A stretch of 64,000 bases of DNA from positions 3,844,001-3,908,000 of the forward strand of contig OZ024743.1 in assembly GCA_964016885.1 (NCBI GenBank). The letters are read 5' to 3'. Source of the stretch: Eledone cirrhosa. Taxonomy: Eukaryota. Below the pieces are notes generated by a model that worked only from the letters and a program-made list of their open reading frames with translations, made no database searches and had not been told where the DNA came from. Below are positions 17,406 to 64,000 of the stretch, piece after piece. How positions within the stretch are numbered: position 1 is the stretch's first letter; every line of letters begins with the position of its first letter. Made by a program: the position numbers and the translations under genes.

Positions 17406-17483
17406 CGAAATATCTTCGAACATACACATACTCTTAGACACACACACATTTCTCACTCTTAGTACGGCTGATACTTAAATATA

Positions 17484-17618
17484 AGTATGTATGCGTACAT
17501 ACATATATGTATACAGACGTACAGTAGTATGTATGCGTACATACATATATGTATACAGACGTACAGTAGTATGTATGCGTACATACATATATGTATACAG
17601 ACGTACAGTAGTATGTAT
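17484..17618. repeat. 42-bp minisatellite, about 3.2 copies
   Basis: agtatgtatgcgtacatacatatatgtatacagacgtacagt repeated exactly. Confidence 0.92.
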
Positions 17619-20164: not shown

Positions 20165-21260
20165 TACATACTGAATCATACTAAATGTAAAAAATCATGC
20201 ATACGTATATTTTTATAAAGAAATACTTATATCTTATAAATATATAATGATATTATTCACGTAAAGTACCCCATTTCAAATGTGTGAAAACGACATGTGT
20301 AACTTTCGATTGATGTGTATCCATTAAAGTGACATTTTATCTTAATGGATGTTCAATCATTATACCTAATGCGGTTTTTCGTTTATCGTCAAAAGCACAT
20401 TCCATTTACTTTTTTAAAATGAACTCCTAAAATATAAGGTAAAAGTGTTTGTTTTGTTTTGGTTTTCATATTTTACTATACTTTATTTTCACTTTTCTAT
20501 TTCTTCTAATTTGTTTTCTATCAGCTTTCCTAATTCAATCTTAACCACACATTTCCCAATGCTTCATATAAACTGTACTACTTTGTTCTCATGACACCTG
20601 AACCAGACTGTATATACTATCATGTTAAAGCACACATACACATACCCCCCCCCCCACACATCCACACCCACACCCATACACACAAACACACACACACACA
20701 CACACATACACACATGCATATACACACACACAGACATATATATGTAAAATGGTGTAAAACAGAACAAAGAGGAGACTTAAAGTAACAAAAGTAGTTACTG
20801 AAGAGGTCACACAATGTGTGTTGAAAAAACCTTGATAATCAACAACTAAACAAGCACCCGGTTTCAAAACTAACCGACTGGGAAATTAAAATAATTAATT
20901 GAAGTGAAACTCGTCATATTGGCAGCATGAACCTCCCAAAGTATAACAATATCTGTTTCAACAAACTTTTTTTATATAAAAAGTTTGCAAAACAAATACA
21001 AAACGATATACATATATCTCAAGCCAAAATCTCGATTTACTTCCAATATTCGTTGTTGCAATGTTTTGTAATAATGAATATTGTTTCTTTATTAACGAGT
21101 AAAATCGACTTATTTTAGTCGGTCTCGTTTGTATCCCACCAAATCGAGATTTTTGATTAAGTTTAATGTTAAATTACTTCTGGATATTTGATAATTTATC
21201 TGTATATTTTATACTTTTGTTGAGATGTCTAAATATTAGAGACAAATAGCTTTTCAATTG

Positions 21261-21587: not shown

Positions 21588-21629
21588 TATATAAATATAT
21601 ACCTATATATATATATACATATATATATA

Positions 21630-23338
21630 TTTATTAAAATAACAGATTAAAGTTTAAGCAAAGAATCGCTGAAAACAAATAACGAAACGGAATTAAATTT
21701 TGTTTCGTTTGTAACTCACTTTTGTATGACTGACGCTTAAACAATTAAGTTAAAAATGTACATCCACATATGTATACTGAAATACTAGTATGCATATGAT
21801 TACACACACGTATACATATGTAGATGTACCGAGTTTTTCACTGGTCACTTTACTGTGAGTGTCCAGCTATTCTGTATGTAAACACACAGACAAACCGGTT
21901 TTTAGAGTCATACAGGTTTTTGAGGAAACACCTTTCCTCTATTCTCAGAAAGCCAGACAAGGAATATTGAACTAGTTTCGATGTTGTTACATCTCATCAG
22001 CAATATTTACCTATCTTCCGGCCTCTCTAGATATCTTCTGAAACTAACAAAGTCAATCTGTAAACGCAGAACTGGATATTTCAAAAAACGTTGCAACCGG
22101 AGGAAAACAGGAAGACGATACTTTGGTTCGTGGAAACGTTCGCTGGCAAAGAACGGGAAAAAACGAATAATACGTCATTAATAGGAGCGGTGAAAAACAA
22201 TTACGCGCAAAGACAGAACCACGTTTATGGTATAAAAGAGGTCGTAGACTAATGTTCTCTTAGGTGGTGCATAGAAACGTTCTCTGGCAATGAATGAAAA
22301 AACGAAGATAATAAGTCATATGTGGAGCGTTGAGAACAATAGCACGCAAAGACAAAACCACGTAAATGGTATTGCAGACGTCGTAGACTAAAATTCTAAA
22401 TAGGAGACCAAATGAATCTCCGCTACAGAGTTAAGAACAAAGTAAATAAATACAATACATAAGTAATAGAAATAAATAAATACATACACGCAAACAAATA
22501 CGTACAATCGCAAGCATACGCAAAACCTTACCATAGGTATACAAAACCACGCACATATAAATATGTGTGTGTGTGTGTGTATGCTTGTGTACAAATAAAT
22601 AAATAATTATATAAACGTATATAAGTAAATAAATACGTATATAACAAGCGCACACACATACCTACATATAAATACACGAATGTTCGGAGACGTAAGTCAA
22701 CTAAAACAAGAAGTACACATATACACACACCCACCGTACGTACGAACCTTCATACTCACGCAGACGCAAAACTCCCGTATACACATAGCCAAACCATAAA
22801 TACCCGAATATATAAAAATTATACGCCATAACAATCAAATATACGTACGAGAAGGTATACATACCTTCACAAAACATACGGGTAATATATACTTACCTAT
22901 GCAAATAAGTAAAGGAATAAACAAAACATATACTTAGCTCCCACATCAAGACGTAAAATATCCACGTATAGATCGTACTATCCGTTAGGGTATAACGTGG
23001 GGCTGTAATACAGGAAAGTTTTGTGCAATTTATGTTTACAAGCCGAAATTGCCTCAGATTTTTTGTTTAAGATGTGTTCTGTGGCGTAGTGTATTTCCAG
23101 GGCCTCAGCGGCGCAAAGGTCACATGGTCTTTTATTTCCGTTATACGATCTAGCCCTAGCTAGGATCTCCCAGTGTAACTTATATTGGGTGTGGTTGTCT
23201 TTTAGACTCCAGATATAAGCTGAAAGTGACGTCATATTCCTTCTTAGAGGGTAACGAAAAGAATGGGTATGCAAGTAAAGACGCTGCTTGAAACTATTGG
23301 CGGTTAACCCTATGTAGGCCCTACGGGACGTGGGTGTT
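21630..23338 (-). mobile_element. 5'-truncated PLE: GIY-YIG 3' end plus long 3' region containing a partial 465-bp monomer, ending aataaa(TA)n
   Basis: ORF 22978-23274 (SLSAYIWSLK...CDLC...ILNKKSE...CKH) is near-identical to the C-terminus of ORF 56770-57594. Segment 21672-22026 matches the array unit. Confidence 0.88.
21963..22007 (-). ncRNA. Minimal type I hammerhead ribozyme, solo copy with compensatory stem II
   Basis: AAUAUUG-CUGAUGA-GAUGU aaca ACAUC-GAAA-CUAG-UU-CAAUAUU. The U-A pair of the array copies is A-U here. Confidence 0.93.
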
Positions 23339-23445
23339 TGCTCTACGGTTCTTATATATTTGATATATATTTATCCTTATCGAGCCCTCTTTGGATTTTA
23401 GTCTTCAATTTTATTATTATTACTATACATATATATATATATATA

Positions 23446-23719: not shown

Positions 23720-23781
<62 letters not shown>

Positions 23782-25392
23782 TAACAGATATTAAAGTTTA
23801 AGCAAAGAATCTGTTATTTTAATAAATACGTGATCTAGGGTTCTTATATATTTGATATATATTTATCCTTATCGAGCTCTTTTTGGATTTTAGTCTCCAA
23901 ATTTATTATTATTACTATATATATATATGTTTATCTCGGGCTCAATCGGGGGTAACGACAGTAAGTAAGACAAAGCAGAGTATAAATATTTAATATAGAA
24001 AGGCTTCTACAAGACTAGAACTAGGGCTTCCCGATGATTTCTCCCGAAGTCTTTCTATATTAAATATATATATATATATATATGGAAAGTTATATTTAAA
24101 TTGTTGGGTTACAACTAGTAAATATTTATAACTGATATAAAAGCACTCGACAAGTATTTGGAGTATATTTACGATATTAAATAAATGGAAACTATATTTA
24201 TAAAACCATATTTATTTCATTATATATATTTCAGGGATATCATATTAACAATATGCTATGCCTTCCTCAGACAAAATACAATATAAACAGTTTTATAGAT
24301 AAATAGATTTGACATACCGTACAACATCGACTATATTGAAAATATCAGTATTCAGGAAGTATCTCATTCAGGAATACTGATATTTTCAATATAGTGCCTG
24401 GTTTTTATACATATTAATACTTCTACATTAAAACATAGGGTTTTTATGCCTCGCCTATGTTTGGTTACTTTTCATTTTTCTCTCTATATAACAGCTGGTT
24501 TCTCTCCTAACCACATATATCTCCCTTACATTAATACTAGAGCTAAATAAATAAATAAATAAATAAATGTATCATTGATACGTTTACTCAACGGATGTCC
24601 AACTACATATTTTTCTATATATATATCTATCTCTATCTATTTCCTCTCTCTATATATATCTCTCTCTGTTTCTTTACATGAAGTTCTTCTCTTTATCTAT
24701 CTTTCCATCTCTCTCTTTTTTGTTCCATGCATTTCTTCTTTTTCTTCTTTTTCTTCGTTTTCTGTCTTTCTTTCCTTTTTTTCTCTCTTTCTTTCTTTCT
24801 GTTTACAATTTTTTCACTGCCAATTCAACTTTTCAAATACAAGTCGATGTTGTACGGTATGTCAAATCTATTTATCTATAAAACTGTTTATATTGTATTT
24901 TGTCTGAGGAAGGCATAGCATATTGTTAATATGATATCCCTGTAATATATATAATGAAATAAATATGGTTTTATAAATATAGTTTCCATTTATTTAATAT
25001 CGTAAATATACTCCAAATACTTGTCGAGTGCTTTTATATCAGTTATAAATATTTACTAATTGTAACCCAACAATTTAAATATAACTTTCCATATATATAT
25101 ATATATATATTTAATATAGAAAGACTTCGGGAGAAATCACCGGGAAGCCCTAGTTCTAGTCTTGTAGAAGCCTTTCTATATTAAATATTTATACTCTGCT
25201 TTGTCTTACTTACTGTCGTTACCCCCGATTGAGCCCGAGATAAACATATATATATATAGTAATAATAATAAATTTGGAGACTAAAATCCAAAAAGAGCTC
25301 GATAAGGATAAATATATATCAAATATATAAGAACCCTAGATCACGTATTTATTAAAATAACAGATTCTTTGCTTAAACTTTAATATCTGTTA

Positions 25393-25468
<76 letters not shown>

Positions 25469-25970: not shown

Positions 25971-26372
25971 TTTTTATTTGAATTTGGCAAAGCCGGCCAT
26001 TCATCGCTCGTATACAGGAAACTGACTGGCCAGTCTGCTGATATACAAATCTGGCTGATCAATGGATCTACTAATATGTAGATCTGACTGATCAACCAGT
26101 CTGCTAATATGCAAATTAGGCCGATCAGTCAATGTGTATTTTTGAAAATAGCATATATTTTCAGTAGCTCTGACAGTTTGGCAGGTGAACAGTGAGCTGT
26201 ACTGATGAAGGGTGATACCCAGAAACATTAGTGTCTGCAGTTCTGTTCACATGCCAACACACAAGAGCAAGAATGAAGGGTTCATTCTACTGACATGGCT
26301 ATAAAATTGAGGCTTGTTTGCATAATTGCAAACTAATCGAATGTTATTAATATTCGAAAAACTCAGATTATA

Positions 26373-26431
<59 letters not shown>

Positions 26432-26439
<8 letters not shown>

Positions 26440-26782
26440 ATACTTTGGGAGGGTCATGTTGCCAATAAGAAACATACGCACCAGTTGCTTTCACTTCAAT
26501 TTATTATATATTTATAAATTTATAAATCTACAAATCTACAAACTTATAAATTTCCGGTTGGTTGGTTGGTTCCACAACCAGATAGTTGTTTATATATAGT
26601 CATAGTCCTTTCGTCACACACTCTGTGACCTCTTCAGTGACTGGGGATTCCTTTCTTTGTTTCTGTGCCTTTCCTTTCTTCTGTCCTACGCCATTTTGTT
26701 TCTGTGTGTGTGTTGTGTGCTCAGTTTGCGCATGCGCCACATCCGGGTGTCTGTGTGTGTTTGTGTTCATTTATCTATTTGT

Positions 26783-26813
<31 letters not shown>

Positions 26814-27509
26814 CCTTCAAGAAAATAAAGAATCATCTGTGCTCTACCAACATGCTAAGATAGAGCACAAGGGTAAATTAGAGAACATAGAAATAAAAAT
26901 AGAATCCGCACACAGAAAAGATGCAATGTTTAGGCAAATTACAGAGGCAGTAAGCATAAAAGAATTACAACCAAAATTAAATAGAAAATATGAGTGGAAC
27001 AGCAACATCACAACTTACAATTAAGGACAAAATGAAAACACACACACACATAGAACAAACAACCAACCAACAACATGTAAATAAATAAATAAATAAATAA
27101 ATAAACAAATAGATAAATGAACACAAACACACACAGACACCCGGATGTGGCGCATGCGCAAACTGAGCACACAACACACACACAGAAACAAAATGGCGTA
27201 GGACAGAAGAAAGGAAAGGCACAGAAACAAAGAAAGGAATCCCCAGTCACTGAAGAGGTCACAAAGTGTGTGACGAAAGGACTATGACTATATATAAACA
27301 ACTATCTGGTTGTGGAACCAACCAACCAACCAGAAATTTATAAGTTTGTAGATTTGTAGATTTATAAATTTATAAATATATAATAAATTGAAGTGAAAGC
27401 AACTGGTGCGTGTGTTTCTTATTGGCAACATGACCCTCCCAAAGTATAACAATATCGGTTTCAACACACGATTTCAGATAAAGAATCTTGCTAAACAAAT
27501 TCAGAAACG

Positions 27510-27512
<3 letters not shown>
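26432..27512 (+). mobile_element. PLE remnant: GIY-YIG C-terminus (26820-27024) between inverted pseudo-LTRs (26432-26812 / 27078-27455)
   Basis: Peptide SVLYQH...RQITEAVSI...PKLNRKYEW. Near-identical inverted arms with (TA)n flanks. Related copies at 20565-21000 and 37056-37310. Confidence 0.85.
27245..27289 (+). ncRNA. Minimal hammerhead-like ribozyme (mirror copy 26598-26642 minus; relative 37074-37116 minus)
   Basis: AGUCA-CUGAAGA-g-GUCACA aagug UGUGAC-GAAA-G ga C-UA-UGACU. The 37-kb relative has CUGAUGA and a CUU triplet. One extra G precedes stem II. Confidence 0.78.
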
Positions 27513-36317: not shown

Positions 36318-37345
36318 CAAATGTAAGCTAGTAGGTTTGTTGTTTTAATTGAATTACCACAGGCTTGTTACTGGATACATGGCTAACGATTTTTAATAGC
36401 ACTCAAACACTCAACATGCCGCACATACGAATAATTACAGTACTACAGGAGGACACTATTACAAAGACAACACCAGTAAACCAAGCCCCCTTAAATTACT
36501 ACGAAGAGAAATATTATTTTAAAATATTGATGTGAAAATCTGTATTGCAAAACATTTTCCTTACCTAATCAGAACAAATTTATATAATGCCACATGAGGT
36601 GAGGTGTTAATGAAATCCAGAATGAAAAATTAACAAAGAATTAACAAAAGAACTCGATATACAACCACCTACAAATGTATACAACGTACCGAGATGATGT
36701 TTCCGGTAACAATGTATAAATAGGTTGCATATGAATTACGTGGTATTCCGGTACACGTCATCTGCAACAGCTCCTTTGTAGTTGATACGGAAACCCGCAA
36801 CAAATATATTGGATGCTAAAACTATAGAAAGTAAAGTGTTTTATATATTTTAGAGTAGAAAAAGGTACTCGAAATTTGTAAAATAGAACACGAATTGCAT
36901 TAGGTCTGACAATAGATTAACACAAGCATATATATATATATATACATTAAAAACTCGTTGTAGCATGGCTAATTACATGTACCTTAAGCTGCATTCTTGC
37001 TTTCAGGAAGGGCGACAAATTGGGCGACGAGTTGTTAGAGCATCCGTATAAAAATGATAGTTGTTTATATATTGTCAAAGTTCTTTCGTCACACATTTTG
37101 TGACCTCATCAGTGACTGGGGATTCTTTTCTCTGTTTTTGTGCCTCTCCTTTGTTCTGTCCTACGCCATTTTGTTTCTGTGTGTGTGTTGTGTGCTCAGT
37201 CTGCGCATGCGCCACATCCGAGTGTCTGTGTGTGTTTATATTTGTTTATTTATTTGTTTATTTACATGTTACCGGTTGGTTGTTCGTTCTATGTGTGTGT
37301 GTGTTTTATTTTATGGAGTAGCGAAACAATTGTAAACGGACATTA

Positions 37346-37569: not shown

Positions 37570-37572
<3 letters not shown>

Positions 37573-38170
37573 ATGTAATTGCAGAGACCCATCACTATGC
37601 CCCCTTAGTAATGAATGCATGACGAAAAATGTAGTCTACAGGTGCAAGGTCACAACCCCTAACTCGGAGCACCACTACATAGGATCCACAACGACGAGCT
37701 TCAAAGATCGGTGGTATAACCATCGCCATTTCTTTAACAGAATAGATAAGAGGAAATGTACGGCCCTTTCTGAATTGATCTGGAAGCTCAAACTTGAAAA
37801 GACCCCGCACTCTCTGGTCTGGTCCGTGGTTAGAAAGGCTCCCCCAGACAGAGGCGGGTCTGGTATTTGCAACCTCTGTCTTAGTGAGACACTCGAAATA
37901 CTTCATGGCGGAACCAAGCTATTAAACAGAAGGGTCGACTTATTCGGTGCCTGCAGACACCTAAGGACGGGAATTTTCCTCAAGCTATATGGATAAACCC
38001 CGGTTAAGGCCTCCCACAACGCCTCCTCCCACTGTAGGTCCCCTACACCCTGTACCAATGACCAATGGACAACAACAACCACCCATAGTTTGTGGTCCCT
38101 ATGGTGGATGGTCTACCGGATCCTCTACTGGTTAGGAGTCATCAAAACCACGTTTTATTGAACCTGATTT
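37570..38170 (+). mobile_element. 5'-truncated PLE: GIY-YIG endonuclease plus 3' UTR, within (TA)n
   Basis: CNCRDPSLCPL, then ORF 37619-37996 with VYRC...YIG...CNLC...LLN. Confidence 0.9.
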
Positions 38171-41404: not shown

Positions 41405-41432
<28 letters not shown>

Positions 41433-41438
<6 letters not shown>

Positions 41439-41853
41439 GATAGGGGGAAGAAAAAATGGCTTCACTTGTGCTTTCAACAAATTTTTTTTCTTCACAAAAT
41501 TCAAAAAGAATTTTTCTTAAAAAAAATTATTTTATAAATTAAGTTGTTGGTTGTTGGTTAGGTCTTAGGAGTTCTTGGTTAATGTAGGAGGTATTGTTTC
41601 GTTTTTAGAAAGACCTTTCACGCTGAGGTGCGCTTGTTAAACTGTTTGACAAGCGCACCTCAGCGTGAAAGGTCTTTCTAAAAACGAAACAATACCTCCT
41701 ACATTAACCAAGAACTCCTAAGACCTAACCAACAACCAACAACTTAATTTATAAAATAATTTTTTTTAAGAAAAATTCTTTTTGAATTTTGTGAAGAAAA
41801 TAAATTTGTTGAAAGCACAAGTGAAGCCATTTTTTCTTCCCCCCTATCTTAAT
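41433..41853. repeat. Near-perfect palindrome, 210-bp arms, 1-nt spacer at 41643
   Basis: Centre ...gcgcttgttaaac t gtttgacaagcgc...; about 2 mismatches over the arms. Confidence 0.95.
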
Positions 41854-41955
41854 ATACCTAACTGTACCAAGGATTACACACATTTTCCAATATATATATA
41901 TATATATTATAAAAAATAAACAAAGAGGCCTTCAATACATCAAAAGTCTTTATTA

Positions 41956-41996
41956 GCCAGCAATGTTTCGTCCCATTAATAAGGACTCATCAGGGC
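41956..41996 (-). ncRNA. Hammerhead-like motif with non-canonical cleavage triplet
   Basis: GCC-CUGAUGA-GUCC uuauuaaug GGAC-GAAA-C auu G-CU-GGC followed by aataaa. The triplet GCU is not NUH, so it is probably inactive. Confidence 0.6.
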
Positions 41997-43327: not shown

Positions 43328-43656
43328 TGTATACCAACGGGCTTTAAATGTATTCCCAGTCGCTCCGATGTAATACCATTTCTGGTTGTCTGATTCCACT
43401 GTGCATTGGTAAACCAGGTTAGACTGCATACATTTATTATGTAATGGACAGGTTTCAGGTAGGTGGCAGTTACAATTCTTGTCATTGGCAACTTTGGCAT
43501 TATTGGTGGGCTGCGATGCCTGTGCAAGTGTGTTACGTTTTGTTTGCCTATTAGTCGGTGTTGTGTATTAGATATTCTGTTGTGTTCAATGGTGATTGTA
43601 TTGTTATTGTTGTAAATTTGTGTTCTGGTGTTGTTATGTATCTTTTTAGCGTTAAG
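43328..43656 (-). repeat. Inverted copy of the PLE linker/GIY-YIG segment (45284-45612) at the element's 5' truncation
   Basis: Minus-strand ORFs 43258-43659 and 43085-43429 reproduce the peptides encoded at 45284-45612. Confidence 0.9.
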
Positions 43657-43659
43657 CAT

Positions 43660-45900
43660 CTTCCATTTCGATAAAGGACGTCATGGTCGCGCCGTGGAAT
43701 ACAACAAGGAAACATACGGCTTCAAATCGTGCAAGAACCCACCTGACAACCTTCAACTGGCTGCCTTTGAACAGGACTTACTAAAGATGATTATGAACAT
43801 CAAATTAAAAAATCGGAGGAATAATAAACTCCAGAATGACATAAATACATTCCTAAAAAAGCTGCGAACCACCAATGGAATTATTGTCAAAGCGGACAAA
43901 ACATCAAATGTGTATACGATGGATGTTAATACATACAATAGCTTCATACGGAAGGAATTACATAGGAAATACAAAAAAACTAATGAGGCGGCACTGATAA
44001 ACATCAACAACGAGGCACACAATATAGTCAAACACCTAGGAATAGACGGCAGAACGGAGCCACTTAGGCCATGTACCCCCACATTTAATCTCAAGGACCA
44101 CAAGGTAAATTTTGATTATAACCCCACAATTAGACTTATATGCCCGTCCAAATCGGACATCGGGAAAATTAGTAAACATATATTAGACAAAGTGATAGCA
44201 CAAATGAAGAATAAACTAGTGATTAAACTATGGGGTAACGCTACCGAAACAATTAAGTGATTTAACAATATAGCTAACAAAGAAGTATCTAAATTTATAC
44301 AATTTGACATTAACGACTATTACTCTTCTATATCCCCCAACATCTTGGATAAAGCCTTAGCATTCGCCAAAGCCAATTATGACCTAACAGACGACGAGAT
44401 AAAAATCATATTAGCTGCTAGGAAAACAATAATTAAATTTGAAAACGCCTATTGGGAACGTAAGGATAGATTAAATAACTTTGACATCACGATGGGGGCG
44501 AACGACTCGCCTCAAGTCACAGATTTAGTAGGTATTTACATAGCCCATAGTTTACAAAGTGAGTTTAGCGACCTTCACGGTGGAATCTACAGAGACGACG
44601 CCCTTCTCCTAGTTAAGAACCTAAATAACCAGAGCATAGAAAGACTCCGTAAGAATATTAGAAAGACTCTCGGGAAACTAGGTCTTAGCATAACGTATGA
44701 GTATAGCACTAAAACAGTTAACTTTCTAGACGCGACGCTTAACCTAAATACGGGACTTATAAGACCTTTTCACAAGATTAATGAAAACTTAGCATACATC
44801 AACTGTAACTCAAACCACCCACTATCAATAATTAAATCCATTCCACGCAGCATATCCCTTAGGATCTCCCGCCTCTCGTCTAACCGACAAATCTTCGAAG
44901 AACATGCAGAATACTACAATACCGCATTAGACAAGGCAGGCCACTTAGATAGAGTACAATATATAGATGAAGCCTCAGTAAAGCGCACACGAACACGCAT
45001 AACACAAACTCGCAAAACACGCACACACGCACTTACGCATAGAACTATAAAGTATACGGTAAATAGAAATACAACATCGAAATCAAACAAGTCACGCAGT
45101 AGAAAATATATTTGGTATAACCCCATATTTAACACCTCTATTAGTACTAACCTACCCTCTACCTTCTTTAGAATAATAAATAAGCACTTTCCAGATTCAC
45201 ATAGATACAGCAAAATCTTTAACACTAACTCTATTAGACTATCTTACTCCACGGCACCAAATATAGAGGCACACATTAAGATCCTTAACGCTAAAAAGAT
45301 ACATAACAACACCAGAACACAAATTTACAACATTAACAATACAATCACGATTGAACACAACAGAATATCTAATATACAACACCGATTAATAGGCAAACAA
45401 AACGTAACACACTTGCACAGGCATCGCAGCCCACCAATAATATCAAAGTTGCCCATGACAAGAATTGTAACTGCCACCTACCTGAAACCTGTCCATTACA
45501 TAATAAATGTATGCAGTCTAACCTGGTTTACCAATGCACAGTGGAATCAGACAACCAGAAATGGTATTACATCGGAGCGACTGGGAATACATTTAAAGCC
45601 CGTTGGTATACACACCGTTACGCTATGAAACATTCCCAGCATCGTTATGTAACTGCCCTTGCAAACAAGACCTGGCAACTGAGGGAAAGTAACCATCAAT
45701 ACACCCTGAAGTGGAAAAAATTATCAAACGCGCCCTCATATCGGAGTGGTATGAGAAGCTGTCGATTATGCGACCTTGAGCTGTTCCAGATCTTGAGTTC
45801 GAAGAATAAGTTACTCAACAATAAAATCTAAAGATCAATTTATTGTAACCATAGACTCAAAGAGAAGTTTTCGCACTACAAGTGCAAATCGAACCCTTAA
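43660..45900 (+). mobile_element. Penelope-like retroelement pol pseudogene (RT + Cys-rich linker + GIY-YIG), probably Naiad-like
   Basis: Motifs IIVKADKT, FIQFDINDYYSSI, FDITMG, IYRDD, VNFLD, SNHP, CNC-x5-CPL, VYQC...YIG and CRLC. One in-frame TGA at 44258, a linker frameshift, and a TAA at 45829. Clade call is inference from motifs. Confidence 0.93.
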
Positions 45901-46743
45901 CCTCTTACTACCAACTGACAAACTGCATATACTTAGACTTTATACCCTCTTGTTGTATCTAAACCCTTTTAATTACCCACAAAAACCAATACCTATATCC
46001 CCCCCTTCTCCTTCATTCCTCTTCTATTTCTTCGTTTTCTTCCTTCCCTCCCCTTTTTGGCTATCTTTTCTTTTCTTCTTTCTCCCCCTTCTTTGCTTTT
46101 ATTTTTGTCATTATTATCTTTATCTTTATTTTTTATATATATATTTATCTGTTTATATCGCCCCCACCCTCTCTCTCTCTATCCATCCCTCCCACTATGA
46201 TCAATTTAATTCTCCTTAACTCACTACATTCCACGACATGAAGTCTACTTACCAAAACTGATCAAAGAATCCTTCCACCTCTACCCCTCCCTCAATTTCA
46301 GTTTGTCATTCTACTTCCTACCTCTTCCCCCTTCCTCTCTATCTATACTATTCCGTTTGTCCCCTCACCTTCTGATTCCTCTCTCTCTATACTAGTAAAT
46401 ACAATTCCAAATAAATGCTTTTCTCTATATATTAAGAATTATTTCAAGAGTAACTTACTCACTATTTTGAAAATTTGGACTGTGAACAACAATTATAATT
46501 GAGTGGCTGCTATTTGCAGTATAGCAATATAAGGTTGCACTTACCAATGAAACGGTCGTGAATACCTGGATAAAATCCTTCTCTTAATGCTTACCTGTGT
46601 TTTCTCTTTTATACTTTATATTCCAAGATTGAACGGAATTCTTACAAACTTGTGGAGTTACCCCTAACCGTACGTTGAAACCATCCATGAAACTGGCTTT
46701 CTTAACCACGAACTTGATCACAAAAAGCAATTGTTCTGCTTCC

Positions 46744-46856
<113 letters not shown>

Positions 46857-47185
46857 CATATATGTATATATATATATGTATAAAAACAAATAACGAAACG
46901 AAATTTAATTTCGTTTCGTTTGTAACTCACTTTTGTATGACTGACGCTTAGTGACGCTTAAACAATTAAGTTAAAAATGTACATCCACATATGTATACTG
47001 AAATACTAGTATGCATATGAATACACACACGTATACATATGTAGATGTACCAAGTTTTTCACTGGTCACTTTACTGTGAGTGTCCAGCTATTCTGTATGT
47101 AAACACACAGACAAACCGGTTTTTTAGAGTCATACTGGTTTTTGAGGAACCACCTTTCCTCTATTCTCCAGAAAGCCAGACAAGG

Positions 47186-47230
47186 AATATTGAACTAGTT
47201 TCGTTGTTGTTACAACTCATCAGCAATATT
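47186..47230 (-). ncRNA. Minimal type I hammerhead ribozyme (first of 10 identical copies)
   Basis: Minus strand reads AAUAUUG-CUGAUGA-GUUGU aaca ACAAC-GAAA-C ua G-UU|CAAUAUU: 7-bp stem I, canonical core, 5-bp stem II, palindromic ACUAGU stem III, GUU cleavage triplet. Confidence 0.93.
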
Positions 47231-50200
47231 TACCTATCTTCCGGCCTTTCTGGAGAGTCGTAAAAGCACATATCGTTATATGCTTTTTCTATGAAAATTA
47301 GTAGTGGGCAGACTAATTTGCATAGAGCGTGAGTACGTACCGGTTCAACGGAGACGATAAAAACAAATAACGAACCGAAATTAAATTTCGTTTCGTTTGT
47401 AACTCACTTTTGTATGACTGACGCTTAAACAATTAAGTTAAAAATGTACATCCACATATGTATACTGAAATACTAGTATGCATATGAATACACACACGTA
47501 TACATATGTAGATGTACCAAGTTTTTCACTGGTCACTTTACTGTGAGTGTCCAGATATTCTGTATGTAAACACACAGACAAACCGGTTTTAGAGTCATAC
47601 TGGTTTTTGAGGAAACACCTTTCCTCTATTCTCCAGAAAGCCAGACAAGGAATATTGAACTAGTTTCGTTGTTGTTACAACTCATCAGCAATATTTACCT
47701 ATCTTCCGGCCTTTCTGGAGAATCGTAAAAGCACATATCGTTATATGCTTTTTCTATGAAAATTAGTAGTGGGCAGACTAATTTGCATAGAGCGTGAGTA
47801 CGTACCGGTTCAACGGAGACGATAAAAACAAATAACGAAACGAAATTAAATTTCGTTTCGTTTGTAACTCACTTTTGTATGACTGACGCTTAAACAATTA
47901 AGTTAAAAATGTACATCCACATATGTATACTGAAATACTAGTATGCATATGAATACACACACGTATACATATGTAGATGTACCAAGTTTTTCACTGGTCA
48001 CTTTACTGTGAGTGTCCAGCTATTCTGTATGTAAACACACAGCCAAGCGGGTTTTTAGAGTCATACTGGTTTTTGAGGAAACACCTTTCCTCTATTCTCC
48101 AGAAAGCCAGACAAGGAATATTGAACTAGTTTCGTTGTTGTTACAACTCATCAGCAATATTTACCTATCTTCCGGCCTTTCTGGAGAATCGTAAAAGCAC
48201 ATATCGTTATATGCTTTTTCTATGAAAATTAGTAGTGGGCAGACTAATTTGCATAGAGCGTGAGTACGTACCGGTTCAACGGAGACGATAAAAACAAATA
48301 ACGAAACGAAATTAAATTTCGTTTCGTTTGTAACTCACTTTTGTATGACTGACGCTTAAACAATTAAGTTAAAAATGTACATCCACATATGTATACTGAA
48401 ATACTAGTATGCATATGAATACACACACGTATACATATGTAGATGTACCAAGTTTTTCACTGGTCACTCTACTGTGAGTGTCCAGCTATTCTGTATGTAA
48501 ACACACAGACAAACCGGTTTTAGAGTCATACTGGTTTTTGAGGAAACACCTTTCCTCTATTCTCCAGAAAGCCAGACAAGGAATATTGAACTAGTTTCGT
48601 TGTTGTTACAACTCATCAGCAATATTTACCTATCTTCCGGCCTTTCTGGAGAATCGTAAAAGCACATATCGTTATATGCTTTTTCTATGAAAATTAGTAG
48701 TGGGCAGACTAATTTGCATAGAGCGTGAGTACGTACCGGTTCAACGGAGACGATAAAAACAAATAACGAAACGAAATTAAATTTCGTTTCGTTTGTAACT
48801 CACTTTTGTATGACTGACGCTTAAACAATTAAGTTAAAAATGTACATCCACATATGTATACTGAAATACTAGTATGCATATGAATACACAAACGTATACA
48901 TATGTAGATGTACCAAGTTTTTCACTGGTCACTTTACTGTGAGTGTCCAGCTATTCTGTATGTAAACACACAGACAAACCGGTTTTAGAGTCATACTGGT
49001 TTTTGAGGAAACACCTTTCCTCTCTTCTCCAGAAAGCCAGACAAGGAATATTGAACTAGTTTCGTTGTTGTTACAACTCATCAGCAATATTTACCTATCT
49101 TCCGGCCTTTCTGGAGAATCGTAAAAGCACATATCGTTATATGCTTTTTCTATGAAAATTAGTAGTGGGCAGACTAATTTGCATAGAGCGTGAGTACGTA
49201 CCGGTTCAACGGAGACGATAAAAACAAATAACGAAACGAAATTAAATTTCGTTTCGTTTGTAACTCACTTTTGTATGACTGACGCTTAAACAATTAAGTT
49301 AAAAATGTACATCCACATATGTATACTGAAATACTAGTATGCATATGAATACACACACGTATACATATGTAGATGTACCAAGTTTTTCACTGGTCACTTT
49401 ACTGTGAGTGTCCAGCTATTCTGTATGTAAACACACAGCCAAGCGGGTTTTTAGAGTCATACTGGTTTTTGAGGAAACACCTTTCCTCTATTCTCCAGAA
49501 AGCCAGACAAGGAATATTGAACTAGTTTCGTTGTTGTTACAACTCATCAGCAATATTTACCTATCTTCCGGCCTTTCTGGAGAATCGTAAAAGCACATAT
49601 CGTTATATGCTTTTTCTATGAAAATTAGTAGTGGGCAGACTAATTTGCATAGAGCGTGAGTACGTACCGGTTCAACGGAGACGATAAAAACAAATAACGA
49701 AACGAAATTAAATTTCGTTTCGTTTGTAACTCACTTTTGTATGACTGACGCTTAAACAATTAAGTTAAAAATGTACATCCACATATGTATACTGAAATAC
49801 TAGTATGCATATGAATACACACACGTATACATATGTAGATGTACCAAGTTTTTCACTGGTCACTCTACTGTGAGTGTCCAGCTATTCTGTATGTAAACAC
49901 ACAGACAAACCGGTTTTAGAGTCATACTGGTTTTTGAGGAAACACCTTTCCTCTATTCTCCAGAAAGCCAGACAAGGAATATTGAACTAGTTTCGTTGTT
50001 GTTACAACTCATCAGCAATATTTACCTATCTTCCGGCCTTTCTGGAGAATCGTAAAAGCACATATCGTTATATGCTTTTTCTATGAAAATTAGTAGTGGG
50101 CAGACTAATTTGCATAGAGCGTGAGTACGTACCGGTTCAACGGAGACGATAAAAACAAATAACGAAACGAAATTAAATTTCGTTTCGTTTGTAACTCACT

Positions 50201-51372
50201 TTTGTATGACTGACGCTTAAACAATTAAGTTAAAAATGTACATCCACATATGTATACTGAAATACTAGTATGCATATGAATACACACACGTATACATATG
50301 TAGATGTACCAAGTTTTTCACTGGTCACTCTACTGTGAGTGTCCAGCTATTCTGTATGTAAACACACAGACAAACCGGTTTTAGAGTCATACTGGTTTTT
50401 GAGGAAACACCTTTCCTCTATTCTCCAGAAAGCCAGACAAGGAATATTGAACTAGTTTCGTTGTTGTTACAACTCATCAGCAATATTTACCTATCTTCCG
50501 GCCTTTCTGGAGAATCGTAAAAGCACATATCGTTATATGCTTTTTCTATGAAAATTAGTAGTGGGCAGACTAATTTGCATAGAGCGTGAGTACGTACCGG
50601 TTCAACGGAGACGATAAAAACAAATAACGAAACGAAATTAAATTTCGTTTCGTTTGTAACTCACTTTTGTATGACTGACGCTTAAACAATTAAGTTAAAA
50701 ATGTACATCCACATATGTATACTGAAATACTAGTATGCATATGAATACACACACGTATACATATGTAGATGTACCAAGTTTTTCACTGGTCACTCTACTG
50801 TGAGTGTCCAGCTATTCTGTATGTAAACACACAGACAAACCGGTTTTAGAGTCATACTGGTTTTTGAGGAAACACCTTTCCTCTATTCTCCAGAAAGCCA
50901 GACAAGGAATATTGAACTAGTTTCGTTGTTGTTACAACTCATCAGCAATATTTACCTATCTTCCGGCCTTTCTGGAGAATCGTAAAAGCACATATCGTTA
51001 TATGCTTTTTCTATGAAAATTAGTAGTGGGCAGACTAATTTGCATAGAGCGTGAGTACGTACCGGTTCAACGGAGACGATAAAAACAAATAACGAAACGA
51101 AATTAAATTTCGTTTCGTTTGTAACTCACTTTTGTATGACTGACGCTTAAACAATTAAGTTAAAAATGTACATCCACATATGTATACTGAAATACTAGTA
51201 TGCATATGAATACACAAACGTATACATATGTAGATGTACCAAGTTTTTCACTGGTCACTTTACTGTGAGTGTCCAGCTATTCTGTATGTAAACACACAGA
51301 CAAACCGGTTTTAGAGTCATACTGGTTTTTGAGGAAACACCTTTCCTCTCTTCTCCAGAAAGCCAGACAAGG

Positions 51373-51417
51373 AATATTGAACTAGTTTCGTTGTTGTTAC
51401 AACTCATCAGCAATATT
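51373..51417 (-). ncRNA. Minimal type I hammerhead ribozyme (last array copy)
   Basis: Same 45-nt sequence as 47186-47230. Confidence 0.93.
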
Positions 51418-51673
51418 TACCTATCTTCCGGCCTTTCTGGAGAATCGTAAAAGCACATATCGTTATATGCTTTTTCTATGAAAATTAGTAGTGGGCAGAC
51501 TAATTTGCATAGAGCGTGAGTACGTACCGGTTCAACGGAGACGATAAAAACAAATAACGAAACGAAATTAAATTTCGTTTCGTTTGTAACTCACTTTTGT
51601 ATGACTGACGCTTAAACAATTAAGTTAAAAATGTACATCCACATATGTATGTATATATATATATATATGTATA

Positions 51674-51724
<51 letters not shown>

Positions 51725-51766
51725 GTATCTATATATATATATATATATATGTGTATATATATATAT

Positions 51767-53181: not shown

Positions 53182-53216
53182 GAATTTAGATCGATTTAAT
53201 GGCAGAGACACAAAAG

Positions 53217-53370
<154 letters not shown>

Positions 53371-53481
53371 ATATATAATATTAAGGATACTAGTTATGTA
53401 TATTTTAAACTTTTTATAGTTATGTATATTTTAAACCATAAACAGGGAAGGTCAGTAATTTATTACTACCTTATTACCAAG

Positions 53482-54993
53482 GATACGCATAACAACTTTG
53501 ACATAACCATGGGATCTAGTGACTCGGCGCAGGTCACTGATTTGGTGGGCCTATACCTATTAAACGAAATCCATAAGGACCTACTATACCTCAACGGTGG
53601 TTTGTACCGCGATGATGCACTACTCCTTATAGACTATAACAAATTTAATATAGAAAGAACTAGGAAACTATTGCATAAGACTTTCAAAAACTATAACCTA
53701 AGTTTCACCATAGACAAAAACACTAAAAACGTTAACTTCCTTGATGCCACTTTTTACCTAGACTCTAAAATATATACACCATTCCATAAACCTAACGAAA
53801 AACTAATTTACGTAGATACCAAGTCTAACTACCCCAGATCAATATTAAACTCTATCTCAAAAGGAATATCAAATAGAATCTCTAATCTATCTTATAACGA
53901 AACCATATTTAGCAAAAACTCACAATACTATAATCAGGCATTAGCTAGATCAGGACATAATAATGAGATCGAGTTCCTACCTATAAAAACACATAGTTAC
54001 AACATTATTTCTCACAATAGGAAAAATAGTAATAAGAGTAATAACCACACACACACTAATACGAAGGGTAGCAACAAACGTAACTCACACCAGAGAAGAC
54101 ACCAAAATACCATAAACGGAAACACCTCAACAGATATAAAAAACAAAAATAGAAGAACTAATACATTTTTCAACCCCCCTTTCAATTTAAACGTCTCTAC
54201 CAACCTACCTAAGGCTTTCTTCTCACTCCTGTATAAAGACTTCCCATCTGGCCACAAGTGCCATAGTCTTATAAATAAAAACACCATTAAAATCTCCTAC
54301 TCTACCACGCCTAACATAGCATACCACATAGCTAGTAGCAATAAAAGAAAGATTAATACTTACTTTCAACAAACCAAAACACAGCAGGGGGTAAACTTTC
54401 AAAACAACGTAATATCTGCAAACCCTGATATCAATAGTAATAATAGTAATAACACTAATGAAATCAATAACAATGGGAGCGACAACCTCATAGCTATAAT
54501 GCAATACCTAGCAACCAGACTTCTACACAACATAATAACCGACAGGTTAGCATCCAAAATAATTGTAACTGTAGATCTAATAGAACCTGCCCTTTAGATA
54601 AAAAGTGCTTAATCAAGGACATCATCTACTCATGCACGGTCAGAACTAGCAACTCTTCTGAAACCGATATAGGCTCTACTTCGAACTGCTTCAAAACCAG
54701 ATACAATTCACATCTCCATTCTTTCAAAAAACACAGTGTGGCCAACTCCACTTCACTATCTAGCTACATACATTATCTGAAAACTAGAAATATATCACAT
54801 ACACTTCGATGGGAAGTGATAGGTAAGGTGGCATCGTACAGACCATCTAATAAATTCTGTAACCTCTGTCTACTAGAGACCCATACTATAATCTTCTCAA
54901 ACCTTAAACTCCTTAATAAAAAAATCGGATGTGTTTGCGTCGTGCCAGCACCGATTCCGGTACTCCTTCCAAAACTTTAAACCCAATATATAA
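53482..54993 (+). mobile_element. 5'-truncated PLE pol pseudogene (RT + GIY-YIG); 3' region probably extends to ~56550
   Basis: FDITMGSSDSAQV, LYRDDAL, VNFLD; after a frameshift CNCRSNRTCPL, IIYSC...DIG and CNLC. Confidence 0.92.
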
Positions 54994-56579: not shown

Positions 56580-56704
56580 GTAATAATAATAAAATTGAAG
56601 AAGATCCCGTAAAGGGTGAAAGCAGCGATTCTTTGCTTAAACTTTAATCTGTTATTTTAATAAATATATATATATATATATAGTAATAATAATAAATTTC
56701 AAGA

Positions 56705-57839
56705 CTTACATAAGTAAGCATTCCAACCATCCTGCCAGCATAACCAAGAACCTGGTAAGAAACGTTTCGTTGAGGCTTTCCCGTCTTTCCACCAACGAGC
56801 GTATTTTCAACGACCATTCCACTTATTACAATGAAGCTCTTGCACGAAGTGGATTTGTCGATAAGGTAGCATATACAGAGTACGAAAATAGACCTAGAAG
56901 AAATAGATCCCGTCGCATTTGTTGGTATAACCCACCATATAATATGGAGGTGGCCACACCTTTAGCTAAGATCTTTCTGTCCCTTATTACGAAGCATTTT
57001 CCCCCTACACATAAGTATAGTAAAATGTTTAATAGAAATACTATTAAAATTTCTTACTCTACGACTCCTAACCTTGCACATAACATCACAGCTTCAAATT
57101 TAGCTAAACTACCTAGCCGTAGGAAAACGTGCAACCCTGTAGTTAGTACTAACTGTAATTGTAGGAATCGGGTTGATTGCCCCCTATCCGGGAAATGCCT
57201 CTCTAGTAACATTGTCTACAAATGTAAGGTTGTAACACCCACGTCCCGTAGGGCCTACATAGGGTTAACCGCCAATAGTTTCAAGCAGCGTCTTTACACG
57301 CATACCCATTCTTTTCGTTACCCTCTAAGAAGGAATATGACGTCACTTTCAGCTTATATCTGGAGTCTAAAAGATAACCACACCCAATATAAGTTACACT
57401 GGGAGATCCTAGATAGGGCTAGATCGTATAACGGAAATAAAAGACCATGTGACCTCTGCGCCGCTGAGGCCCTGGAAATACTCTACGCCACAGACCACAT
57501 CTTAAACAAAAAATCTGAGGCAATTTCGGCTTGTAAACATAAATTGCACAAAACTTTCCTGTATTACAGCCCCACGTTATACCCTAACGGATAGTACGAT
57601 CTATACGTGGATATTTTACGTCTTGATGTGGGAGCTAAGTATATGTTTTGTTTATACCATTATTTATTTGCATAGCGAACGTTTCCACGAACCAAAGTAT
57701 CGTCTTCCTGTCTTCCTCCGGTTGCAACGTTTTTTGAAATATCCACTTCTGCGTTTACAGATTGACTTTATTAGTTTCATAAGATCCCGTTAAGGGTGAA
57801 AGCAGCGATTCTTTGCTTAAACTTTAATCTGTTATTTTA

Positions 57840-57845
<6 letters not shown>
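56705..57845 (+). mobile_element. 5'-truncated PLE (RT C-terminal region + intact GIY-YIG), ending aataaa(TA)n
   Basis: ORF 56770-57594: WYNPPY, CNCRNRVDCPL, VYKC...YIG, CDLC. SNHP motif lies just upstream. Flanked by (TA)n. Confidence 0.93.
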
Positions 57846-57903
<58 letters not shown>

Positions 57904-63314: not shown

Positions 63315-63554
63315 AATGAGTAGCACCCCGACGGCTGAGCTCAAGCCGTTTCGACGGCTAATTCTGGACTAAATGAACATTTTTATCCTGGTAAATGAAT
63401 AGCCGAGCTTTTCAGGGGGTAATATTCCATATATGATAAAAGTGATTGTCACAAGGATTGGTCAAAAGTTTGTTGTTGATACACATAATTCTATCATGGC
63501 ATTTTGTGGAAGGAAGGGGTAGCTGAACTTGCCAGTAGAAGAAAGTCCCTAACC

Positions 63555-64000
63555 CGAGTAAACTTCCTGGACGTTACCCTTGACCTCGATAATGATCTGT
63601 ACTACCAATACAGGAAACCAAACGATAACCTGCACTACATCCACCGCCGGTCAAACCATCCTAGAAACATCAACAATAACCTGGTTAAAAAGATATCCCT
63701 CCGCATATCTCGTTTGTCCGCTAATGAGCAGATATTCGACGAACATGCGCCTTATTACAACCAGGCCCTCAGGCGGAGTGGCTTCCGGGAGGAAATATCC
63801 TACTGTCCAGCTTCCATTAGCGGAACCAGCAGGCGACACCGCCGCTCACGCAACGTAATATGGTTCAATCCTCCCCACAACGCCGAGGTGACAAAAAACA
63901 CTTCCCACTACAACACCGCTACCAAAACATAATCAACAAAAATACCATCAAACTCTCCTACAGCACCACACCTAACTTTGCACAAAACATCGTCTCCTCT
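63555..64000 (+). mobile_element. PLE RT C-terminal fragment running to the window edge
   Basis: VNFLDVTLDL...YRKPND...SNHP...WFNPP, homologous to the other PLE ORFs here. Confidence 0.88.

Follow-up and report, generated by a model that had tools for sequence, protein, structure and literature searches.

Metazoan non-LTR retrozymes consist of tandem non-coding units of 150–450 bp with one type I hammerhead each, are highly self-paired as monomers, range from dimers to long multimers and coexist with Penelope-like elements (PLEs) (Cervera and de la Pena 2020, PMC7229834). Circles and cleavage are shown there; circle-templated tandem cDNA and mobilisation by PLEs are proposed as hypotheses. 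Vertebrate non-LTR retrozymes are treated as non-autonomous PLE derivatives, monomers to multimers, linked to PLEs by homology to their terminal repeats, with local amplification discussed for the arrays (Li, Clavereau, Pollet 2026, bioRxiv 10.64898/2026.07.22.740005; below Li 2026). Newt satellite 2 and axolotl retrozymes have a short helix III and are reported to cleave as dimers (PMC6155905, PMC7229834); the newt repeat carries an internal promoter of snRNA type (PMC2220036, citing Coats 1994). PLEs possess two internal priming sites that define a tail, and leave an inverted 5'-truncated second copy at (TA)n targets (Poseidon_Ac in vitro, Frangieh et al. 2024, PMC11167929; Hydra clade, Craig et al. 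2021, PMC8557442). PMC11167929 describes internal initiation at two sites, with both strands cleaved and extended, and predicts a dimer; PMC8557442 describes the inverted 5' copy, the tail and (TA)n targeting.

The locus described here lies in a window of 64,000 nt, the whole stretch of DNA analysed. Its family shares with the metazoan retrozymes the tandem non-coding units, each with its type I hammerhead, the GC content (0.36 in the monomer), self-pairing, dimer to multimer range and coexisting PLEs. Units of 465–470 nt, slightly over the published range. Known from genomic sequence. Fixed ends, a tail and inverted arms are present, features not given in the portion of PMC7229834 drawn on here. 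The link to PLEs is insertion anatomy, and multi-unit arms appear to have been present at insertion. Differs from PLEs in having no ORF, a tail of about 70–75 nt instead of 30–40 nt, and two arms that can both reach many units. Like viroids and viroid-like RNAs, a small, highly self-paired, non-coding hammerhead RNA, possibly circular; unlike viroids, the ribozyme is on one strand and is encoded in, and spread through, genomic DNA. The core motif was found on the minus strand only and in thousands of DNA copies, with no sign of RNA-to-RNA replication. The label 'viroid-like' of the preliminary description is therefore dropped, since genomic copies point to spread by reverse transcription. A literature search (most subscription journals outside its scope) found no prior description of the family or of two-armed retrozyme insertions; the supplements of PMC7229834 (model figure S9) and the 2026 preprint may bear on this.

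The array and its hammerhead

Features of the array and its flanks are as follows.

46880..51650, minus strand: retrozyme insertion, 10.2 tandem units of 465/466 bp, single arm
46880..46963, minus strand: array tail between both family-wide 3' ends, with a 13-bp hairpin
46942..46961, no strand: 10-nt tandem duplication at the short start site, private to unit 1
47186..47230, minus strand: type I hammerhead (sequence motif), predicted cut 47193/47192
47316..47323, minus strand: octamer ATGCAAAT, present in all units, 100 nt ahead of the hammerhead core
46749..46879: left-hand (TA)n target, doubling as 3' flank to a broken Hydra-like PLE
51651..51766: right-hand (TA)n target, joined directly by the array 5' end, no second arm

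Period 465, 10.2 copies, 98% matches in tandem-repeat analysis. The longest ATG ORFs of the dimer are 21 aa (sense) and 26 aa (antisense), and both flanks are (TA)n, so that the ten units, lack of meaningful ORFs and target noted earlier all stand. The monomer is numbered from the base directly after the predicted hammerhead cut (nt 1). The arm spans nt 301 (3' end, left) to about nt 195–197 (5' end, right), with the long 3' end (nt 301) at 46880 and the short ones (nt 232, 227) at 46959 and 46964. Units 2–10 are 0–6 nt apart and unit 1 differs from the others by 16–17 nt, the 10-nt duplication included. Private variants occur in order along the units. Recurrent variant blocks are also present, the array reading C D E C D D D E. 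RT and GIY-YIG pieces of the broken PLE lie at 43616–45828. The array is very probably a single insertion of a non-LTR retrozyme, a non-coding repeat that bears a hammerhead and is dispersed in the genome; tandem hammerhead units, absence of coding capacity, strong self-pairing and dispersal bear out this assignment, made in the preliminary description. Its length is likely the outcome of an insertion of about five units and subsequent local duplications.

Hammerhead with helix I AAUAUUG/CAAUAUU, CUGAUGA, helix II GUUG/CAAC with a 6-nt loop, GAAA, GUU triplet, and palindromic ACUAGU as helix III. Ten letter-identical copies are present on the minus strand (C3 at 47223, 47688 ... 51410), with cuts predicted at 47193/47192, 47658/47657 ... 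51380/51379, 465/466 apart, exactly where first placed. The earlier term 'minimal' fits helix III (A-U and C-G around the palindrome) but not helix I (7 bp, internal loop, long extension) or loop II, which align with the full-length HH9 model. In the Rfam search of the array, nothing reached gathering score; the check first proposed does return Hammerhead_HH9, at 37.7 bits (E 7.7e-8), but below the gathering score of 52. Matches to miRNA and sraA models were far below threshold and were set aside. Helix III ACU/AGU resembles the Hydra hammerheads listed in PMC8557442, a resemblance without a tree, and lacks their loop bases. Dimeric cleavage, reported for the newt and axolotl elements with their similarly short helix III, is predicted here.

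The predicted monomer fold has −167.9 kcal/mol (z −11.8; 0 of 100 shuffles equally good). Helix II pair 443/454 is switched from U-A to A-U (26/25 vs 41/42 insertions), and double changes occur at 7 of 146 predicted pairs across 23 monomers; as judged from these alignments, compensatory changes are present in the ribozyme and elsewhere in the monomer. A sister family retains core and helices in a different sequence. Of 487 motif matches, a count in which loci overlap, 2 have G at the position of cleavage. The tail is more conserved than the rest (7/74 variable sites vs 89/382, P=0.0075); invariance of the catalytic core is not significant by itself (0/10 sites variable, P=0.13). Octamer ATGCAAAT, also found in the sister family, is a candidate internal promoter element, presumably of the snRNA-promoter type.

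Dispersal and insertion anatomy

The genome holds 6,109 exact hammerhead matches (reversed control 0) and 2,316 exact nt-301/(TA)n junctions (control 0), the latter giving a lower bound of at least 2,316 insertions; the genome-wide search suggested earlier thus returns a dispersed family. Spread over many contigs with reproducible junctions, no LTR layout. The family is young, abundant, non-coding and mobile.

Among insertions picked by hammerhead only, whatever their ends, two sites some 70 nt apart account for 40 of the 42 arm 3' ends: nt 299–301 (23) and nt 226–232 (17). The long end was used to select 75 complete insertions; in 49 of them an inverted arm ending at 220–234 is visible by BLAST, and inspection by eye adds 10 (59/75). 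A second long end was found in none of the 75. One arm only in seven, as in the array at 46880–51650. Left out of the survey were L163 (duplicate of L162), L199 (no anchor with passing orientation), the fetch-overlap end of L067, four insertions cut at a fetch boundary, and the window's own loci. Inverted arms with one 3' end of each kind are the PLE 'tail' signature. This insertion anatomy is what is new here; the retrozyme class is already known. The fixed ends are 3' in the hammerhead sense, in keeping with the minus strand as the RNA, and together with dispersal the PLE-type arms and tail uphold the earlier proposal of mobilisation by PLEs. The preliminary description covered neither the two-armed insertions nor the PLE-embedded copy at 21672–22031.

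The 5' ends (131) are scattered at random around the monomer, and arms run across the ribozyme cut site 220 times. Four of the 131 lie at nt 1–5, where 1.4 are expected (P about 0.055), which hints that some templates were linear. A pile-up of 5' ends at nt 1 proved largely a BLAST edge effect and was rejected.

The arms of 60 two-armed insertions differ by a median of 0.52%, vs 5.8% for arms of other insertions; in 18 of the 60 the insertion's own other arm is neither closest nor tied. Variants unique to one insertion and present in both its arms occur in 8 of the 60. One insertion of 12+6 full units (L076) has zero substitutions. Non-fixed variants common to both arms were found in 6 of 65 two-armed insertions, in register in four (L170, L203, L214, L215); there are 9 such cross-arm variants vs 386 unit-private changes over the 65. 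L097 and L172 contain mixed subfamilies. Periodic variant blocks are present in L066, L180, L200, L210 and L222; on the evidence of recurrent blocks, local duplication happens.

Relation to Penelope-like elements

Two further features of the window connect the retrozyme to a PLE.

21629..23422, minus strand: two-armed Hydra-clade PLE insertion, 'PLE-A'
21672..22031, minus strand: second retrozyme copy inside the PLE insertion, with compensatory helix II change

The second copy comprises nt 404–465 then 1–298, continuous across the cut site; it enters the Hydra-type PLE cDNA at nt 298 and exits at nt 404. The insertion opens with a short end of 43 nt; the retrozyme piece comes next, in place of 17 nt, followed by 1.3 kb of PLE sequence and an inverted 86-nt tail arm. 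The stretch 22032–22400 was considered as a PLE body with the retrozyme as its terminal repeat; this was rejected, other copies stopping at the junction, and the stretch belongs to a different PLE interrupted by the retrozyme piece. A degenerate hammerhead look-alike, and nothing better, lies near the short end of PLE-A. No match to CUGANGA...GAAA, the canonical hammerhead, was found near the PLE-A 3' end in L141 or in the PLE part of L131. Among the matches listed, retrozyme and PLE-A share no homology beyond AT-rich matches.

A candidate partner ORF of PLE-A (in L131) encodes 708 aa with RWR, DKT, CNCRNRADC, CDLC and CKH. By motifs alone, without a tree, it agrees with the Hydra-clade definition (PMC8557442): C-terminal GIY-YIG, RWK-type motif, DKT, CxCX5C linker, CxxC, CxH, (TA)n target. 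The Pfam search of the ORF returned 0 families. Protein search returned 1,599 relatives with E<=1e-20; identity is 39–57% among the 120 listed, none of which is named as a PLE. Chimeric retrozyme/PLE junctions come from at least four families of PLE, including a Neptune-like one, and for this reason the partner is not pinned to one PLE; a Hydra-clade element is the somewhat favoured candidate. L151 was rejected as a chimera: TA is retained between the elements, as in a nested insertion.

Proposed mechanism and alternatives

The minus strand would be transcribed to give retrozyme RNA, and tandem transcripts would be cleaved by the hammerhead and ligated into circles. By prediction, a hammerhead cleaves only when paired with a second one by way of the palindromic helix III, a requirement that would spare a lone monomer circle. 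Of the predicted frog retrozyme dimers only 1/9 cleaved in vitro (Li 2026), which counts against the mechanism proposed here, as do the arms that are not closest to their own partner, the mixed subfamilies of L097 and L172 and the single-armed insertions. A PLE reverse transcriptase and nuclease, its protein presumably acting as a dimer, would then copy the RNA into (TA)n tracts, priming on each of the two cut DNA strands, with two fixed start positions in the minus-strand RNA (target-primed reverse transcription). Copying would run round a probably circular monomer, with RNA continuous across the cut site. PLE two-site priming is held with high confidence. The circular monomer is rather favoured as the usual template, on the indirect evidence of seamless cut-site crossing and one haplotype per insertion. 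The explanation as a whole, PLE two-site target-primed reverse transcription of a probably circular monomer with later local duplication at this array, is given a probability of about 0.6. In a stricter form of it, with an even chance of being right, a single ribozyme-made circle would be copied both ways by a dimeric PLE protein, its subunits at nt 301 and nt 227/232, and the cDNAs joined head to head.

The same two-site priming could instead act on RNA of several units made by homogeneous source arrays, either a linear transcript that stays mostly uncleaved or a multimeric circle; any monomer circles would be a side product. The in-register cross-arm variants (L170, L203, L214, L215) fit a template of unlike units rather than a monomer circle; the slight surplus of 5' ends at nt 1–5, the possibly poor cleavage of a minimal helix III, and the purified anole PLE, which used mostly uncleaved RNA and for which the hammerhead was dispensable (PMC11167929), point the same way. 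Cross-arm non-fixed variants are, however, far outnumbered by unit-private changes, and the insertion-private variants in both arms require a bottleneck of one unit. For an arm of 13 units, 6 kb of RNA would have to stay uncut at each of its ribozymes, and the ribozyme is conserved by compensatory change. This multi-unit template, the main rival, is judged rather unlikely.

Growth in place is improbable as the source of the arrays. Here the units would be PLE terminal repeats inserted as monomers and multiplied on the spot at the DNA level, for instance by unequal crossing-over (Li 2026 discusses this as a satellite-birth model), as the recurrent blocks of the array and of the five insertions named above would suggest; young insertions (L076, L206), however, have multi-unit, identical inverted arms, arms begin at a fixed priming site and finish at random, and no autonomous PLE with the retrozyme unit as terminal repeat was found in a non-exhaustive search. 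Least probable is that assembly produced the array artificially, or that ordinary satellite DNA happens to contain the hammerhead motif. The copy number is that of the assembly and the Rfam score is under threshold, but private variants run in order along the units, copies on many contigs show reproducible junctions, helix II covaries, and the sister family holds core and helices in different sequence.

As a family alone, ordinary. Retrozyme circles are known, and their return to the genome is still a hypothesis in the portions of PMC7229834 and Li 2026 drawn on here; the family makes it testable, with two RNA priming sites, a target and a candidate intact enzyme (the L131 ORF) in the same genome. 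Identical units in both arms are a measurable prediction that separates circle, multimer and local-amplification models. Two-way copying of one circle, if true, would provide the mechanism that is still missing to connect retrozyme circles with PLEs, and the inverted copy plus tail of PLEs would come from two simultaneous primings, not self-priming. The anatomy is also relevant to how the inverted copy and the tail arise in PLE insertions at large. A 496-nt contig in a sequence run of unrecorded kind equals one monomer plus 31 nt, as both a circle and a tandem repeat predict, and was set aside.

Array, predicted ribozyme and family

Retrozyme copies in the window, with nt 1 of the monomer as the first base past the predicted cut:
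46880-51650, minus-strand hammerheads: retrozyme array, period 465, 10.2 copies
21672-22031: second copy, inside a two-armed Penelope-like element (PLE) insertion, running from retrozyme nt 298 past the cut site as far as nt 404

The array carries ten identical hammerheads, all on the minus strand. Cuts are predicted at 47193|47192, then at 465/466-nt steps. Tandem structure, cut sites and lack of a meaningful ORF had been proposed in the preliminary description and are all recovered; no ATG ORF of the monomer exceeds 26 aa. The hammerhead itself is matched by Rfam HH9 at E 7.7e-8, but with a score below the gathering threshold. The monomer fold is far more stable than that of shuffled sequences (z -11.8). 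Helix I and loop II are of the full-length form; helix III is a palindrome only. Cleavage is predicted to depend on a dimer, because newt and viroid hammerheads with unstable helix III are reported to need two tandem copies (PMC6155905).

The array is a single arm (one run of units in an insertion), nt 301 to about nt 195. Read from its 3' end, it begins with two unique units, continues as C D E C D D D E and closes with a partial unit. C-specific changes are absent from other family copies among the matches listed. The simplest history would be that about five units were inserted, acquired private mutations and were later duplicated locally. Periodic variant blocks also occur in other long arms; at one genomic copy (L200) they are missing from the second arm, which indicates duplication after insertion.

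Exact hammerhead matches number 6,109 in the 3.0-Gb genome (control 0). Subfamilies diverge by up to 13%. In helix II the paired positions 443 and 454 covary; double changes are found at 7 of 146 predicted pairs among 23 monomers, which are related, so that events are not independent. No propagated variants are found at ten sites of the catalytic core, not significantly so (P=0.13). The 74 nt between the two end sites described below are conserved above the remainder of the monomer (P=0.0075).

A looser pattern gives 38,368 matches genome-wide, including a sister retrozyme family that appears to account for a large share (L116:1850-2387, L121, L122, L123, window 17447-17555). In L116 its unit measures 538 nt and encloses a long AT tract; elsewhere hammerheads are spaced about 420-500 nt. 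Hammerhead flanks and an octamer are common to both families, with 67% identity across monomer nt 173-381; helix I and II sequences are unlike. The sister family is also found as inverted pairs.

All sequence-level traits of non-LTR retrozymes (PMC7229834) that are testable here are present. The family is classed on sequence as a putative non-LTR retrozyme, as had been proposed, with cleavage and circles predicted. The class is already known, and a 2026 preprint argues that animal retrozymes derive from PLEs; the present family is another member. The mobilisation step is left as a hypothesis in these two sources. Insertions of the present family record that step, which gives the family its worth.

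Insertion ends and template

Ends were surveyed in 26 stretches around the first 100 hammerhead matches on one contig, picked by hammerhead and not by ends. The 3' ends of 42 arms lie at nt 299-301 (23, long end), at nt 226-232 (17, short end) or elsewhere (2). With 40 of 42 ends at two sites and a PLE-type insertion pattern, the suggested mobilisation by PLEs gains support. Since 3' ends are fixed in the hammerhead sense, the minus strand is indicated as template. Exact long-end/(TA)n junctions number 2,316 genome-wide; short-end junctions number 563 on the forward strand, and overlapping matches inflate the reverse count.

A second set comprised 80 stretches at previously unsampled long-end junctions, out of 100 among the 2,316; 79 insertions were kept, 4 are cut by a stretch boundary and 75 are complete. 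An inverted arm ending at nt 220-234 is BLAST-visible in 49/75 and seen by eye in a further 10. Seven join TA directly, as does the array, four join other elements and five are unclear. A second long end occurs in 0/75. No prior report of two-armed retrozyme insertions was found in the portion of the literature searched.

According to PMC8557442, PLEs insert at (TA)n targets, with an inverted copy that is truncated 5' and a tail on one side; retrozyme insertions match in inverted truncated arm, tail (the span between long and short ends) and target. In vitro, the PLE tail has been shown to be bounded by two internal sites at which a protein primes; this protein nicks and extends both strands and is predicted to be dimeric (PMC11167929). 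An earlier account of PLE inverted copies invokes self-priming on antisense RNA (PMC3846280). Arm-to-arm overlaps mostly differ from zero by a few bases at most and the two 5' ends are unrelated, so that two separate priming events would fit better than self-priming. Insertions at L018, L077 and L061:7211-7773 are not in pure (TA)n; apparent target duplications of about 7-11 bp are seen at L018 and L077, and the second L061 insertion uses a (GAT)n tract.

The 131 refined 5' ends are scattered round the monomer (4 at nt 1-5 vs 1.4 expected, P about 0.055), and arms run across the cut site in 220 places. A cleaved linear monomer could not yield this pattern; a circle or an uncleaved multimer could. 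Across 60 two-armed insertions, median arm divergence is 0.52% within an insertion vs 5.8% against arms of others; the other arm of the same insertion is closest or tied in 42, and 8 carry in both arms a variant private to that insertion. The 18 full units across the two arms of L076 show zero substitutions. Among 65 insertions made up of at least four pieces, 386 changes are unit-private, 39 recur in one arm and 9 recur across arms. The excess of unit-private over cross-arm changes favours a single-unit template, and a monomer circle is probably the usual one (about 0.6). Multimers are less likely as the usual template; against a single-unit template, four insertions carry in-register variants common to both arms and two mix subfamilies, so some templates would have had unlike units, or template switching occurred.

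Candidate PLE partners and neighbouring hammerheads

Other elements in the window (PLE-A, a Hydra-clade PLE, lies at 21629-23422):
26436-27511; 37056-37312; 20798-20950: a different PLE family, which carries a hammerhead of its own
26202-26225, plus: further hammerhead, within 26030-26370
43616-46748; 53200-54977; 56599-57849; 37571-37993; 63489-63929: broken Hydra-like PLE copies of different families (RT and GIY-YIG pieces)
41966-41993, minus: hammerhead-like motif of yet another family
41430-41860: long inverted repeat beside that motif
23767-25407: two short PLE-A ends in inverted orientation, separated by about 1.5 kb

The PLE insertion around the second window copy consists of a 43-nt PLE end, the retrozyme piece, the PLE resumed 17 nt on for 1.3 kb, and an inverted tail arm. 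Its PLE/retrozyme junction is absent among the best 40 of 1,668 candidates. The simplest reading is that the template was switched while the PLE was being reverse-transcribed; alternatively, the retrozyme would have entered the PLE end later. Retrozyme is joined to PLE-A at L012, to a relative at L028, to a Neptune-like PLE at L154 and to another Hydra-like PLE at L188; such junctions involve several PLE types, and PLE-A is one candidate partner among them. Foreign sequence stands at the arm junction or serves as second arm at L188, L217, L173 and L164 (LINE-like RT fragment, 67-nt filler of unknown origin, ends of other elements), which fits promiscuous template jumping.

The PLE-A end has 29,844 exact matches genome-wide, its own long and short ends lie about 90 nt apart, and L131 holds an intact 708-aa ORF with Hydra-clade motifs. 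No homology between retrozyme unit and PLE-A is seen among the matches listed. The ACU/AGU helix III of the array family is similar to that of Hydra hammerheads given in the PMC8557442 supplement, a resemblance only. Hammerheads are reported to be universal among Hydra elements. PLE-A (L141:2920-2975; L131) lacks a canonical one; a degenerate look-alike near the short end has CAGAAGA instead of CUGAAGA, helix I missing.

The window is crowded with PLEs nested in one another's (TA)n flanks. [quoted passage not shown] The octamer about 95-100 nt before the hammerhead core recurs in three families. ATGCAAAT lies 93 nt upstream of the hammerhead at 26202-26225, and the stretch 26030-26370 also contains 33-bp repeats; it may be a third retrozyme or a PLE end.
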